Source: Candidatus Micrarchaeota archaeon
Lineage (GTDB): Archaea; Micrarchaeota; Micrarchaeia; Micrarchaeales; CABMGC01
DNA: 64,000 nucleotides
Reading direction: 5' to 3'
Assembly: GCA_021818995.1 (NCBI GenBank)
Contig: JAKASP010000002.1
Location: 15,689 to 79,688 of the forward strand
Of this stretch, positions 9,915 through 48,757 are shown one piece after another. Position 1 is the first letter of the stretch; each line of letters starts with the position of its first letter. The notes under the pieces are model-generated. The model did not search any database. It saw nothing but the letters and a program-made list of their open reading frames with translations, and had not been told where the DNA came from. Both the position numbers and the translations under genes were made by a program.

Positions 9915-11081
9915 ATGAATGCGAGACGCGACAACGTCGCCTTCATGCTCGGCGTGCTGCTGGCGTGGATAGCGCAGGGATCCATCTGGTACACAATGCC
10001 CCTTCTGTTTTCCAAGGTGCTCTCGGACAACTACTTCGTGGTCGGTCTGCTTATAGCCATGATTCCGCTTGTGGAAGTGGTTGTAGCGATACCTTTCGGA
10101 TATTACGCCGACCTTGGCAAGATCAAGTACATCGCCTTCGACTCTATGCTCGCCCTTCTCGCGGTGCCGCTCCTCTTTGCGCTGAAGGTCAGTTCTCTTA
10201 ACGCAGCTGGAGTATTCCTGATCGGAGCAGGGGGCATAGGCATCTGGATCGCGGCTACAGCCCACGTCTCCCACTACTTCGGAAGGAAGCCGAAGTACAT
10301 AGGCTATGAGCTGGCTGTGATGGGAGTGGGGTGGGTCACCGGCCCGATACTCGGAGGTTTCCTGCTCGAGAACTTCGGTGGCGTGATGCTCGCGGCCGCG
10401 GAGACGCTTATCCTGGCGATAGCCTCGTTCATATTCCTTAAGACTATGCGGTACAAGATAGATGTCACGTACAAGACAGCGCCAAAGCTTGGCAGGCTCT
10501 TCGGCATGGAGCACAGGGCCATGAGGAGACTGCGCCTGCTTGCCTTCCCCTTCCTTCTCCTCTCATTTCTCTTCGCCTTCTTCTCATACACGGTTTGGGT
10601 AGCCGGACCGCTCCTGGCACGAATAGGCGACATAAGCATATTCTTGGGCGGTGCGGTAATAGGCGCGCTCGAGGCTCCGTACGTCTTCGGCGACGCGCTC
10701 GCAGCCAAGTTTTACGTGCGAGGAGGCGTGAAGCGGATAGTGTCAGTATCTGTCCTCCTCTCATTCGTGTTTATGCTGCTGTCGGCTTTGCTTGTTGGCG
10801 AGAGCTTCTTCGCGCTGATAATACTCTTCGGCACTGCGCTGCTACTGGGCATAGCTGATGTGGCCCTGTTCAGCGCCCTTATCGATTCTGACAGGCGCGA
10901 CACAGGAGAGATAGCGGCTTTTGCTACTGTGTCGGGAGGAATAGGCGGCGCGCTGGCCGTTGTGATAGTCGGGGCAACAATAGCAACGTATCAGCTCTAT
11001 GTCATCACCGCGGCCTTCGGCATCCTCGTGGCCATCTTCCTGCTCTACCTCCACCTCAGATTCAAGGACATCGCGTTCTGA
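9915..11081 (+). CDS. MFS transporter
   Basis: About 12 TM segments and a GYYADLGKIKY loop motif. ATG at 9915; the upstream part of the track ORF is antisense to cysS. Confidence 0.8.
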   Translation: MNARRDNVAFMLGVLLAWIAQGSIWYTMPLLFSKVLSDNYFVVGLLIAMIPLVEVVVAIPFGYYADLGKIKYIAFDSMLALLAVPLLFALKVSSLNAAGVFLIGAGGIGIWIAATAHVSHYFGRKPKYIGYELAVMGVGWVTGPILGGFLLENFGGVMLAAAETLILAIASFIFLKTMRYKIDVTYKTAPKLGRLFGMEHRAMRRLRLLAFPFLLLSFLFAFFSYTVWVAGPLLARIGDISIFLGGAVIGALEAPYVFGDALAAKFYVRGGVKRIVSVSVLLSFVFMLLSALLVGESFFALIILFGTALLLGIADVALFSALIDSDRRDTGEIAAFATVSGGIGGALAVVIVGATIATYQLYVITAAFGILVAIFLLYLHLRFKDIAF

Positions 11082-11740: not shown

Positions 11741-11766
11741 ATACCTAAAAGGCGAACTCTCCCTGT

Positions 11767-11840
11767 GCGAGCGTAGTCTAGCCTGGTTAGGACTTTGCCC
11801 CTCCAAGGCAAAGAGCCGGGTTCAAATCCCGGCGCTCGCA
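11767..11840 (+). tRNA. tRNA-Gly(UCC) with C at position 33
   Basis: Same acceptor, D-stem and T-arm as the GCC isoacceptor. Anticodon stem TTGCC/GGCAA, loop CCTCCAA (11800-11806). 74 nt. Confidence 0.85.
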
Positions 11841-11861
11841 TTTACGCTCTGCGGCTAGGAG

Positions 11862-12749
11862 CTACGACAAGTATTTACGGTTCTCTTTCAGGTAATTTCT
11901 GAAAAACCATTGGACAAATACGTCCTCGTTTCCTTTTACGTTTGATCTTTCTAGTGCGGTGTAGTAGCTTCTCCTGCCTGTGTATTTTATGTTAAGCATG
12001 GGATAGCCTTTCTTATGAAGTATGAAATTCATTATCAGCCTGCCAATTCTTCCATTTCCATCTCCGAAGGGATGCATGGTCTCAAACTTCACATGGGAAC
12101 GGCTGGCAAGTTCAACTGGGTTCATTCTTTCTTTCTCAGCAGAATACCATCTAAAGAACTCAGTGATGTTGGTATGCAACTCAGCGGGCGTGGGTGGAAT
12201 GTGCCTGCTGTTGGATATGTACACTTGGTAGGTGCGAATCTGGCCGGCTATTCCGGGTTTTGTTCTTTCGAACAATCCCCTATGCCACTCAAGAACTACT
12301 TTCAAGGAGAGTTCTCCCTTAAATGAGATCATTCTATAGAAGACTTCTCTGTGCGCTTCGGCTTCCTTTATATCCTTTACGGGCTTGTTCTTTGGGCTTA
12401 TGCCTAGTTCTAGGAGTTCGGATGTGTCTTTGAAGGATAATTTCGAACCCTCAATCCTGTTTGTGTCGTATGTGAAGATTACAGCAAAGGCGTCAAGCTC
12501 TTTTTCTTTTATTTCTTTGGGCAAAGTCTTTTGCTCTTTAGAATATACTTTTTTTATTTTTTCAAATTCATTGAACCATTTTTCTTTATAGATATCAAGT
12601 AGGAAGTTCTTCTTGATTAGATCCGTGTTCGGTGGAAGCCTTCTCCCGATGTAAGTTTCCTTATACCTGATCTTTCCTTTCTCTCTGTAAGTATGACCAA
12701 GATAGTAGTAAGTCTTGCCAGAGATGACCCTCTTCTTTAGTGTGACCAT
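11862..12749 (-). CDS. Fic/DOC family protein (class II, cis inhibitory helix)
   Basis: HPFGDGNGRIGR catalytic motif and an N-terminal TNRIEG match to the (S/T)xxxE(G/N) inhibitory motif. Codon usage is AT-rich and atypical for the window. Confidence 0.9.
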   Translation of the reverse strand: MVTLKKRVISGKTYYYLGHTYREKGKIRYKETYIGRRLPPNTDLIKKNFLLDIYKEKWFNEFEKIKKVYSKEQKTLPKEIKEKELDAFAVIFTYDTNRIEGSKLSFKDTSELLELGISPKNKPVKDIKEAEAHREVFYRMISFKGELSLKVVLEWHRGLFERTKPGIAGQIRTYQVYISNSRHIPPTPAELHTNITEFFRWYSAEKERMNPVELASRSHVKFETMHPFGDGNGRIGRLIMNFILHKKGYPMLNIKYTGRRSYYTALERSNVKGNEDVFVQWFFRNYLKENRKYLS

Positions 12750-12757
12750 GCATTATC

Positions 12758-12811
12758 TTTACACTCACAAATATATAAATGTATCATTTTTAGATAAAAT
12801 GTGAGTGTAAA
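12758..12811. repeat. Perfect 12-bp inverted repeat flanking the Fic TATA box
   Basis: TTTACACTCACA (12758-12769) and TGTGAGTGTAAA (12800-12811) bracket AAATATATAAATG, which sits about 26 nt upstream of the Fic ATG. Confidence 0.8.
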
Positions 12812-12997
12812 TACGTCGAAAGGCATGACAATTTGACTACACGTTTTGAGATTTGTGGTCACCATGTCTTATTCTGTCCTGGCAGTTACGCTTACAAGTT
12901 AATCAAATTAGCAGAATTATATAAAATGTGAGGGTAAAAATGGATTTGCACTGCTTACATACGTAATTTCAAGCACAAAGTACGGTGTCCGCGTCTC

Positions 12998-47073: not shown

Positions 47074-47613
47074 TCACTTGCTGGCGAAGTACATTATGGT
47101 GTATATCGGCCCAAAATAGGTGCTGTTTGGCGCCTCGATGAGCATGGTGGCGTTGGTGAACGCGTTGGGGTAGCCGGTGCAGATCTGCTTGCCGTTCACG
47201 TTGCTTATTCCGAGCAGCTTGAAGGGCGGCAGCACGACCGCGTACTCGAATGTGCTCGCAGAGCCGTTGTACAGCAGGCTGTAGTGGAAGACCTGGCTTG
47301 CGTTTGCGGCAGTATAGGAGTTGAACGCGTTAGCGGCCCTCGACCTGAGCACGACGCTCATGTTCTCCTGGCAGAAGGTCTGGTTGAGCGATACAAGCGT
47401 GAGCTGGGTTGTGTTCTCGTTGCTCGGGCTCCCTACCACGAACTTGATTGCAGGATGTATGATGAATGGCTTAGCAATGAGGCCCTTGAGGTTCAGGTAG
47501 CTTGACGCGGATACGAACGCGCAGACAACGGCAGTGAAGAACAGGAGCACTAGTACAAGTATCACAGTGTCGCGGTAATCCCTCTTCTTGCGACTTGCAC
47601 GTGCCATGCGCAT
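47074..47613 (-). CDS. N-terminally anchored secreted glycoprotein, unknown function
   Basis: ATG at 47613 or 47607 (MRMARASRKKRDY plus TM). The longer track ORF merely translates through the tRNA-Leu fragment. Many NxS/T sequons. Confidence 0.65.
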   Translation of the reverse strand: MRMARASRKKRDYRDTVILVLVLLFFTAVVCAFVSASSYLNLKGLIAKPFIIHPAIKFVVGSPSNENTTQLTLVSLNQTFCQENMSVVLRSRAANAFNSYTAANASQVFHYSLLYNGSASTFEYAVVLPPFKLLGISNVNGKQICTGYPNAFTNATMLIEAPNSTYFGPIYTIMYFASK

Positions 47614-47649: not shown

Positions 47650-47675
47650 TGCAGGGGGAGAGATTTGAACTCTCG
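47650..47675 (-). repeat. Displaced copy of the tRNA-Leu(UAG) 3' end (att-like direct repeat)
   Basis: TGCAGGGGGAGAGATTTGAACTCTCG is identical to 48652-48677 (discriminator, 3' acceptor strand and full T-arm) in the same orientation. Confidence 0.85.
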
Positions 47676-47747
47676 AACCCGCAAAATAGACGGTGATAGA
47701 AAATAGCAACAAAAATCAGCAGAAAGCCATACAGGTTAAGAAAACAG

Positions 47748-48059
47748 TTATTCTTCTACAGGATTTCCTACAATCTTGTAGCTTATTTTGTCCTTATGCC
47801 TGTTTAACGCCACTAGCTGGTCTCTGTTAATGTAGTTCCATGCTTCTTTTCGTCCGCTCGTTTCGACAACCCTCTCGCTTATGGCGCCGAGTTTATGCAA
47901 TATTGGAAATGCTTTCTTGTCGTCTTCGTCAGTTCTAAACACTACTACGAATAGGTTCTTGCCCTCGGGTGGGCTTTCCTTCCAATCCTGAAGGCGTTTC
48001 GTTTCTAAGGCAACTGCCATAAGACTCATTTTGTTTCCTCTTTTAAGGTTATTAAGCAT
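47748..48059 (-). CDS. Hypothetical protein B of the island operon (103 aa)
   Basis: Its ATG overlaps the stop of the upstream ORF (ATGCTTAA), with GGAGTGAG SD about 9 nt upstream. Oligo-T runs follow the stop. No motif recognised. Confidence 0.6.
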   Translation of the reverse strand: MLNNLKRGNKMSLMAVALETKRLQDWKESPPEGKNLFVVVFRTDEDDKKAFPILHKLGAISERVVETSGRKEAWNYINRDQLVALNRHKDKISYKIVGNPVEE

Positions 48060-48570
48060 TTGCTCTCACTCCGTAGTTTGAACCGTTTTTGCTTACAAAA
48101 CTGACTTCTGATTGTTTGATTACTATCTCTTCCTGTGGCGCACGTCTGACGTCTCTGGCGTGCTTCTCCAGCCCTGCTTTTAGCTTTACAAAGTAGTCTA
48201 AAGCCTCGGTCGTAGGCAAACTGTACACCTCACAACGTGCGTGCTCGTTGATAACGATTCTGTTTGCCTTCTTTTCCACCCATTCGCCTGATACAAGAGG
48301 GCCTTGTGTGTTTGGAGGTATAGTAGACCCTCCAAAATCATCTCTGAAAAGCTTCTTGAGTTCGCTCATGTCCTCGTCTGTAAAAACGTGGATTTCTTCT
48401 TTGCTTCCAACTTCTTGCTCCGTCACCGGCAACAGAATAACAAATTCGTAATGCGGACCTCTGAAAGTGGGCATCAAACGCGATACGTCATATCTGGGTT
48501 GGCCAAACGGTCTTTTTGAAACATCTTCTTTTGCCTTGCTAGTACTCTGTGTAGCAACTTTCTCTGCCAT
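48052..48570 (-). CDS. Hypothetical protein A of the island operon (172 aa)
   Basis: GGGAGGGG SD lies directly before the ATG and CTATATAC TATA-like about 45 nt upstream. The N-terminus is charged and disordered, followed by a globular part. No motif recognised. Confidence 0.65.
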   Translation of the reverse strand: MAEKVATQSTSKAKEDVSKRPFGQPRYDVSRLMPTFRGPHYEFVILLPVTEQEVGSKEEIHVFTDEDMSELKKLFRDDFGGSTIPPNTQGPLVSGEWVEKKANRIVINEHARCEVYSLPTTEALDYFVKLKAGLEKHARDVRRAPQEEIVIKQSEVSFVSKNGSNYGVRANA

Positions 48571-48651
48571 TCCCCTCCCACTATGATTTGTGATCTTGAG
48601 GGTATTTGTATATAGCCAATAATTTCGTACACTCTATTTAGACCATTGGGC

Positions 48652-48737
48652 TGCAGGGGGAGAGATTTGAACTCTCGCAACCACAAAGGTAACGGGTCCT
48701 AAGCCCGCCGCATTTGGCCAAGCTCTGCCACCCCTGC
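48652..48737 (-). tRNA. tRNA-Leu(UAG), class II
   Basis: Acceptor GCAGGGG/CCCCTGC, anticodon stem GCGGG/CCCGT, loop CTTAGGA, long variable arm, T-arm GAGAG-TTCAAAT-CTCTC. 86 nt. Confidence 0.9.
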
Positions 48738-48757
48738 ACGATAGCATATACACATGC

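Follow-up and report, generated by a model that had tools for sequence, protein, structure and literature searches.

A 1-kb att-bounded cassette at a tRNA-Leu insertion hot spot of Micrarchaeota, probably mobile by site-specific recombination

A 1002-bp segment inserted at the 3′ end of tRNA-Leu(UAG)

This analysis concerns a 64-kb stretch of Candidatus Micrarchaeota DNA (the window, in whose positions all coordinates of the cassette, the tRNA and the att copies are given), in which a 1002-bp segment adjoins a tRNA-Leu(UAG) gene and ends with a second copy of the 3′ end of that tRNA. The segment is probably a non-autonomous, att-bounded integrative cassette that is moved by site-specific recombination, the integrase being provided in trans or by a co-resident element of a cassette array. 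This view is based on the geometry of the insertion, on empty sites in relatives, on the near-identity of the unit in a second species, on cassette arrays at the same tRNA, and on integrases that reside at this site and share its att sequence.

A preliminary annotation of the window (the original prediction) had described a 26-bp direct repeat of the tRNA 3′ end. Indeed, the window contains exactly two copies of the 26-mer TGCAGGGGGAGAGATTTGAACTCTCG, which share their orientation (47650-47675 and 48652-48677), and none of 100 dinucleotide-preserving shuffles contained any 26-mer match, even with up to three mismatches permitted. The tRNA-Leu(UAG) gene, the integration target (attB-derived), is intact and lies on the minus strand. 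ARAGORN placed it at 48649-48738, the Rfam tRNA model RF00005 matched 48652-48737 with 53.7 bits (E 2e-10), and the sequence is identical to that of the tRNA-Leu of relative L005. Read on the tRNA strand, the 26-mer comprises one nucleotide ahead of the T-arm, the T-arm, the 3′ acceptor strand, and the discriminator. The exact 26-nt copy at the 3′ end of the tRNA represents the proximal att core (48652-48677, minus strand), an attL-type junction.

The distal att copy, an attR-type junction (47650-47683, minus strand), consists of the 26-nt core at 47650-47675 and an extension of 8 nt, and reads TGCGGGTTCGAGAGTTCAAATCTCTCCCCCTGCA on the tRNA strand. Past the 26-mer, about 8 more nucleotides bear a weaker likeness to the tRNA (GCGGGTTC versus GTGGTTGC), after which the resemblance ends. 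A degenerate continuation that stops abruptly had been predicted correctly; its length is about 8 rather than 10 nt, and the tRNA-like part amounts to 34 nt when set against other att copies. Beyond these 34 nt the sequence does not resemble the variable, anticodon or D arm of a tRNA, and no tRNA was recognized at the distal copy by Rfam (E <= 1), so that the degraded tRNA paralogue named in the original prediction as a possible source of the repeat was not seen.

The 976-bp interior has a GC content of 0.434, compared with a window mean of 0.545 (sd 0.030, 1-kb windows), and its tetranucleotide distance (z = 3.2-3.3) ranks 8-10 among 630 windows; only one other stretch, near 12 kb, deviates more in tetranucleotides. 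The DNA between the repeats is thus AT-richer, as had been expected. No relative was found to carry the genes of the segment without the repeat and with host-like composition, an arrangement that the annotation had listed as contrary to an insertion.

Comparison with related genomes revealed the unoccupied state of the locus. The window flanks encode the seryl-tRNA synthetase (SerRS), aRF1, Rpo6, a geranylgeranyl reductase and glycosyltransferases, and their closest relatives are all found in metagenome-assembled genomes (MAGs) labelled Candidatus Micrarchaeota. The pairing of tRNA-Leu with the SerRS gene is conserved across Micrarchaeota loci. In L007, whose SerRS is 79% identical to that of the window, a host glycosyltransferase gene follows 15 nt past the 3′ end of the tRNA, and in L041 and L030 the syntenic GT2 gene follows after 79 nt and 242 nt, respectively. 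A search for such empty sites had been recommended as a check, and in these three relatives the tRNA-Leu indeed lacks an insertion; distant as well as close relatives have the empty state.

Exchange of the unit between two species

The whole mobile unit (47650-48651, minus strand) is composed of the 976-bp cassette and one att core. A close relative of one of its two open reading frames (ORFs), ORF A, was found at a syntenic position on L086, a 101-kb Micrarchaeota contig (GCA_028866735.1). Positions 9920-10921 of that contig, which cover the cassette and the distal att copy, are identical to the window unit at 996 of 1002 positions (99.4%), without indels. The host genes of the two organisms are far more diverged: identity is 79.4% for the SerRS DNA, 74.5% for the eRF1 region, and 62-86% for the host proteins. 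The near-identity ends at the att copies, and past the distal copy only the three nucleotides AGG are common to both. On the proximal side, the unit is preceded by the tRNA in the window and by the end of another cassette in L086, where the order is tRNA-Leu, a 1206-bp cassette with HEPN and nucleotidyltransferase genes, att, the 1002-bp cassette, att, and the same host flank. Because the identity stops at the att copies, the proximal neighbors differ, and the host genes are diverged, the comparison of the sequences shows that the 1002-bp unit, and nothing more, was recently exchanged between the two species.

The att boundaries also appear as assembly boundaries. An independent ENA contig of 1031 bp, L002, consists of AGG, att, cassette and att, and one MAG contig ends at the same base, showing that independent assemblies break exactly at the att boundaries. 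These breaks are explained by two genomic contexts of the cassette that coexist in the sample and diverge at the att copies in the assembly graph. The possibility that the 1031-bp contig represents an excised circle was rejected, because three nucleotides of chromosomal flank precede the att copy at its start.

The cassette also exists in a third, diverged version, which lies directly past tRNA-Leu on a short contig, L085, in the same compact layout. Its ORF A is 59% identical on the amino acid level. The region 723-1327 of this contig encodes two tandem paralogues of the second ORF, ORF B, of 115 aa and 90 aa, and the second paralogue is nearer to ORF B of the window (80% identity) than the first (59%).

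Two additional differences were noted around the locus. An extra gene of 116 aa lies between SerRS and tRNA-Leu in L086 (8192-8542) and is missing from the window, showing that the other side of the tRNA is also variable. A predicted membrane protein of 175-178 aa is encoded between the distal att copy and the GT2 gene in the window (47074-47610) and in L086 (10958-11485); it is absent at that position in L005, L007, L030 and L041. No degenerate, older att remnant was detected past this gene of 178 aa in the window.

The tRNA-Leu locus is an insertion hot spot

Further occurrences of the tRNA-Leu 3′ end were sought in 80 species-level Micrarchaeota loci (L005-L084). At 10 loci, between one and three of them lie downstream of the tRNA, and every enclosed segment was lower in GC content than its own flanks. 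Of the 51 loci that extend 2 kb or more past the tRNA, 15 turned out to be occupied by insertions at this tRNA-Leu. The integrase-less segments have lengths of 716-1564 bp, except for L050 (2.5 kb) and L079 (3.9 kb, with only an integrase remnant). Arrays comprise up to three units, and cassettes occur in both orientations. For example, the order in L017 is tRNA, integrase element, att, ATPase cassette, att, AbiEii cassette, att.

Genes of the toxin-antitoxin or defence type predominate among the cargo of the cassettes. L009 contains AbiEi/AbiEii, L074 a PIN protein with an AbrB/MraZ-like partner, L012 an AAA_14-DUF4143 ATPase, and L050 a Schlafen/AlbA_2-HATPase protein together with T5orf172. 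In L017, the second cassette encodes an ATPase_2 protein and the third AbiEii. Small winged-helix-like proteins are found in L005 and L081. The 3934-bp unit of L079 encodes a mercuric-reductase-like oxidoreductase, an ArsR-type regulator, a thioredoxin-like protein and a membrane protein. Its integrase remnant is restricted to 29 N-terminal aa, so that metal-resistance cargo is present in a decaying element.

The site also left its mark on the assemblies. In 14 of the 80 cases, the SerRS-bearing contig ends within 250 nt upstream of the SerRS start, several times inside the 3′ core of tRNA-Leu; examples of contigs ending at tRNA-Leu are L049, L057, L065, L069, L006 and L019. Such breaks are far more common than expected by chance and fit a polymorphic site, because polymorphic sites break metagenome assemblies. 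A literature search on integrases and tRNAs in Micrarchaeota and DPANN archaea returned nothing that describes this locus. Taken together, these results reveal a previously undescribed insertion hot spot of Micrarchaeota at tRNA-Leu.

The att copies of different elements were compared. Over its tRNA-like nucleotides, the distal att copy in the window is identical at 34 of 34 positions to the distal copy of cassette 1 of L086, the HEPN/MNT cassette, and the two cassettes are unrelated. A 33-nt suffix is common to the window copy and the distal copy of an integrase-bearing element in L013. The latter differs from the tRNA of L013 itself at position -8 and is therefore element-derived. The same 33 nt form the 3′ end of a genuine tRNA-Leu(CAG) gene on the JGI contig L091, and the 8-nt extension of the window copy fits a 3′ end of the tRNA-Leu(CAG) type and not the resident tRNA. 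In other cassettes, fragments were observed that resemble other leucine isoacceptors, and the distal copy of L050 even retains a UAA anticodon arm. The distal copies, including those of L050 and the window, stem from different isoacceptors. The target of the elements appears to be the 3′ end that all tRNA-Leu genes share. In most cassettes at least the last 21 nt are the same as in the resident tRNA, and differences are mostly found 5′ of the T-loop; the elements of L013, L078 and L079 are partial exceptions to this pattern. The att core with its extension was also used as a pattern against JGI data, and the single match, a genuine tRNA-Leu(CAG) gene, was discarded as a candidate for a further cassette.

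Integrases at the site

In seven species (L008, L013, L017, L027, L047, L051 and L078), a tyrosine integrase of 247-256 aa is encoded directly past the tRNA. All seven match Pfam Phage_integrase above threshold, and the catalytic residues R, HxxR, H and Y are conserved. The nearest relative of solved structure is XerA, which is distant (E 2e-4). Larger integrase-bearing elements, of 1.8-3.3 kb and in some cases more than 5.8 kb, occupy this site. The integrase profile found nothing in IMG/VR, and the integrase had no match in phages.

The cassette itself had been predicted to lack a recombinase, which was confirmed by the absence of Pfam matches and of hits with tblastn and an integrase hidden Markov model (HMM); tblastn did not detect an integrase remnant inside it either. 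The best tblastn integrase match in the window is a GT4 glycosyltransferase and was discarded. Together with the empty sites in L007, L041 and L030 and the same unit in L086, the integrases at the same tRNA in seven species corroborate the proposal that the repeats represent an attL/attR footprint.

Genes and signals of the cassette

ORF A (172 aa; 48052-48570, minus strand) contains the motifs RPFGQ, DFGG.T and N.H...EVY. It is followed by ORF B (103 aa; 47748-48059, minus strand), the start of which overlaps the ORF A stop by 8 nt. The genes are preceded by a non-coding leader of 81 nt (48571-48651, minus strand), and they are followed by a non-coding 3′ trailer (47676-47747, minus strand), the last 8 nt of which (47676-47683) are the tRNA-like extension of the distal att copy; both were aligned with L086 and L085. 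No ORF crosses an att core. The ORF A start is separated from the proximal core by 81 nt, and the ORF B stop from the distal core by 72 nt. The leader contains a TATA-like box at about 48603-48614 and the Shine-Dalgarno motif GGGAGGGG at 48572-48579, and a T-rich stretch is located directly past the ORF B stop. The promoter, Shine-Dalgarno and oligo-T signals that had been predicted are thus present, and all of them are kept in the diverged relative L085.

The leader of L085 (134-213) is 83.5% identical to that of the window, compared with only 65.6% for the ORF A coding DNA. This higher conservation indicates constraint on the leader, which would act either as a promoter/operator or within the recombination site. 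An imperfect inverted repeat, CCAATGG...TTATTGG, lies in the leader; neither a stable RNA fold (z = -0.19) nor an Rfam family was found for it.

Two ORFs had been predicted and described as orphans, and this term is too strong for ORF A. Only two close relatives exist among 5.8 billion proteins, yet a profile search revealed a family of at least 56 clusters at 50% identity with conserved motifs in archaea and bacteria. Neither ORF A nor ORF B has a match in Pfam, PHROGs or PADLOC, the ORF A profile found nothing in the PDB, and a comparison of 45 family members with Pfam and PADLOC did not yield a consistent match. The AlphaFold model of ORF A was too poor for use, with a predicted local distance difference test (pLDDT) score of 43. 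The suggested comparison with virus and plasmid collections did not reveal relatives: the att pattern and ORF A are absent from IMG/VR, and ORF A is also absent from phages and plasmids.

Bacterial relatives of ORF A are often found with a conserved gene of about 70 aa just upstream, e.g., on L088 (3823-4698) and L092 (2781-3426), and this gene product is 51% identical between two distant contigs. One bacterial relative is followed by a gene for a HicB-like antitoxin. The gene order suggests that these bacterial neighborhoods may represent a conserved multi-gene module.

For ORF B only three relatives were found, all of which travel with ORF A. An hhalign comparison with the bacterial 70-aa partner was not significant (probability 4.6%). 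The structural model has a pLDDT of 68 overall and of about 85 for residues 34-100, and for this core a ferredoxin-like beta-alpha-beta-beta-alpha-beta fold is predicted. A Foldseek search of the PDB with the model returned only generic ferredoxin-like or PII-like folds with E >= 0.013, which is not significant. As neighboring cassettes carry AbiE, HEPN/MNT, PIN and ATPase genes, our guess by analogy is that the cargo might be a toxin-antitoxin or defence module.

Proposed mechanism

From these results, we infer an acting enzyme, a crossover position, a circular intermediate and a route between cells. The cassette consists of two genes, their own promoter, and a single tRNA-Leu-like recombination site of about 30 nt. 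Site-specific recombination probably brought it into the 3′ end of tRNA-Leu(UAG), which would have regenerated the tRNA and placed the displaced 3′ copy at the far end. The enzyme was most likely a tyrosine integrase of about 250 aa belonging to the family that adjoins tRNA-Leu in other Micrarchaeota. It would have acted in trans or have come, in cis, from another element residing in a tandem array.

The T-arm is the likely substrate: the enzyme would bind the inverted halves of the T-stem, the 7-nt T-loop between them would be the overlap region, and the crossover would take place in the T-loop or 3′ of it. A simple core-type site appears probable, because a recombinase of 250 aa has no room for an arm-binding domain and the halves of the T-stem form an inverted repeat with a 7-nt spacer; this argument leans on general knowledge of tyrosine recombinases. 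Sites in the T-stem region are the most common class of att sites in Islander (PMC4383910).

If any two att copies of an array recombined, a circle with one att site and one or more cassettes would be set free, and this circle could re-enter any tRNA-Leu gene with the same 3′ end. For the window cassette, the empty attB junction would be expected to read ...GTCCGCAGG + 26-mer + CAACCACAAAGG, and the attP junction of the circle ...CATTGGGC + 26-mer + AACCCGCAAAATAGACGG.

Alternative explanations

Several observations weigh against a cassette that is mobilized in trans. The 64-kb window does not encode an integrase or another tyrosine recombinase that was detectable with tblastn and the integrase HMM. 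The cassette and the integrase elements share only the tRNA-like site of 33-34 nt and not the conserved arms of the integrase elements. For the species of the window, neither an empty site nor a circle was found, and the flank-plus-core pattern was absent from the JGI metagenomes, collections which may lack this species. Only this one cassette is documented in two species. Lastly, integrase fragments beside the tRNA in L031, L055 and L079 show that decay of larger elements occurs at the hot spot.

The last point leads to the strongest alternative, namely, that a larger provirus, plasmid or island with an integrase has decayed here, so that only two cargo genes and the att sites are left and the segment no longer moves. 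Larger elements with integrases do reside at the same site, and the original prediction had indeed offered a decayed provirus or plasmid alongside a non-autonomous cassette mobilized in trans. Nevertheless, we regard decay as unlikely. The unit has identical 1002-bp boundaries in a second species and at another array position, with 99.4% identity, and must therefore have moved after it had reached its present size. In addition, both att cores are intact, and the diverged version in L085 has the same compact layout directly past the tRNA. Of the two possibilities originally offered, the trans-mobilized cassette is favored over the decayed provirus because the boundaries are the same in two array contexts and the cassette is devoid of an integrase remnant.

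Alternatively, the cassette might spread without a site-specific recombinase, by DNA uptake and homologous recombination via the short homology of tRNA-Leu 3′ ends. It is known that tandem integrated elements of archaea exchange modules by homologous recombination (PMC8371274). Outside the cassette, the att sequence of 26-34 nt is the only sequence common to both contexts, which is compatible with this route, and some arrays contain long repeats of 46-119 nt. However, a homology of 26 nt is very short for efficient recombination, and a dedicated integrase family is found at the exact site in seven species. Furthermore, the 3′ identity of at least 21 nt, with differences mostly 5′ of the T-loop, is the pattern to be expected of a fixed crossover region. 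This route thus appears still somewhat less likely than decay.

That the distal 26-mer is a relic of a second tRNA-Leu gene with ordinary host genes in between is effectively refuted: although its extension fits the 3′ end of another isoacceptor, tRNA-Leu(CAG), the tRNA-likeness ends after 34 nt, before any anticodon or D arm, the interior is compositionally foreign, relatives have empty sites, and the unit is 99.4% identical in species with host genes that are only about 75-79% identical.

Comparison with known systems

The att-bounded cassette was compared with several classes of mobile elements. In a study of Streptococcus islands related to ICESt1 and ICESt3 (PMC5704250), cis-mobilizable elements (CIMEs) are defined by the retention of attL and attR, the absence of integration and transfer genes, and tandem accretion. 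The window unit resembles them, as it is bounded by att sites with both 26-nt cores intact and lacks integration and transfer genes, and as units of this type occur in tandem at the 3′ end of the target gene. By analogy, it should become mobile once a related element that encodes an integrase is adjacent or otherwise present. The near-identical copies in two species and the L017 array, which includes an integrase-bearing unit, lend this indirect support. In contrast, CIMEs are bacterial, have decayed from conjugative elements, usually comprise many kb, and travel by conjugation, whereas the window unit is archaeal (DPANN), is ten times smaller with its 1 kb, and shows no trace of a lost integrase or of conjugative descent. 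With respect to an origin by decay, the evidence is thus mixed: the cassette has no integrase remnant, decay is seen at L031, L055 and L079, and the att sequence matches that of an integrase-bearing element.

The tycheposons of Prochlorococcus are tRNA-targeting elements with tyrosine recombinases in a streamlined genome (bioRxiv 10.1101/2020.12.28.424599). Common features are repeated integrations that push older units outward, partial tRNAs and degenerate remnants, and defence cargo. However, tycheposons encode an integrase of their own, usually together with a replication module, and range in length from several kb to more than 10 kb; both the integrase and the replication module are missing from the window unit. 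The integrase family at tRNA-Leu is also a distinct one, archaeal, of about 250 aa, and distantly similar to XerA.

Elements of the SSV-type "suicidal", pNOB8-type and SNJ2-type kinds likewise integrate into the 3′ portion of tRNA genes and are bordered by directly repeated tRNA ends (PMC8371274). The window unit differs from them in that it does not contain an int(N)/int(C) gene split across the att site, has no integrase, and is smaller by an order of magnitude. A classification as an SSV-type element was rejected, since no ORF crosses an att core and no similarity to integrases exists. The same review of archaeal tyrosine recombinases does not mention DPANN archaea (PMC8371274).

Genomic islands as defined by Islander have an intact tRNA gene and a displaced 3′ fragment in direct orientation, with att sites in the T-stem region (PMC4383910), and the window unit has the same architecture. 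Yet Islander islands contain an integrase gene and are at least 2 kb long, and candidates that lack an integrase or are shorter than 2 kb are dropped (PMC4383910). Units like the window cassette, with its 1002 bp, are therefore filtered out by design, which may explain why they went unnoticed.

Cassettes of integrons share several features of organization with the elements at tRNA-Leu: a length of 0.7-1.6 kb, one or two genes with one site each, arrays beside a fixed site, an integrase outside the cassette, and frequent toxin-antitoxin cargo. Integrons have also been reported for archaea. However, the site at tRNA-Leu is a tRNA 3′ end and not an attC hairpin, the cassettes have their own promoters and occur in both orientations, a platform promoter is missing, and the integrase, where present, lies inside an att-bounded unit (L017). 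Judged on site, orientation, promoter and location of the integrase, the locus thus deviates from an integron with attC sites, an IntI-type integrase, and a platform of attI and Pc. It is a tentative idea, and one we consider rather doubtful, that Micrarchaeota possess an integron-like gene-capture platform that uses the tRNA-Leu 3′ end as a universal site, that a minimal tyrosine recombinase of 250 aa, for which the T-arm site of about 30 bp is sufficient, shuffles one- or two-gene cassettes of 0.7-1.6 kb across array positions and species, and that the window cassette is currently active.

A second region of deviant composition in the window

Positions 11766-12940 have the lowest GC content (about 0.40) and the most deviant tetranucleotide composition of the window. 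This region contains a gene for a 295-aa protein with a Fic domain (11862-12749, minus strand; motif HPFGDGNGRIGR), which lies directly past tRNA-Gly(UCC). A repeat derived from tRNA-Gly was not found in the region; on the far side, an imperfect repeat of 53 nt is present (12759-12811 and 12886-12938). Composition and position suggest that this may be a second island at a tRNA gene.

Significance

Gene exchange is poorly known in DPANN archaea, which have tiny genomes and rely on host cells. The tRNA-Leu locus provides a concrete, sequence-defined route: one conserved site gathers small, self-contained cassettes, and at least one of these was recently passed between species as an exact unit of 1 kb. 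Island finders that filter for an integrase and against lengths below 2 kb systematically miss this class of elements. The compact integrase and its short site could have practical value as a minimal recombination system. If a tRNA-like site of about 30 nt is indeed sufficient, the size limit for a site-specifically mobile element would be very low, and such cassettes would account for the circulation of defence and addiction genes in these organisms.

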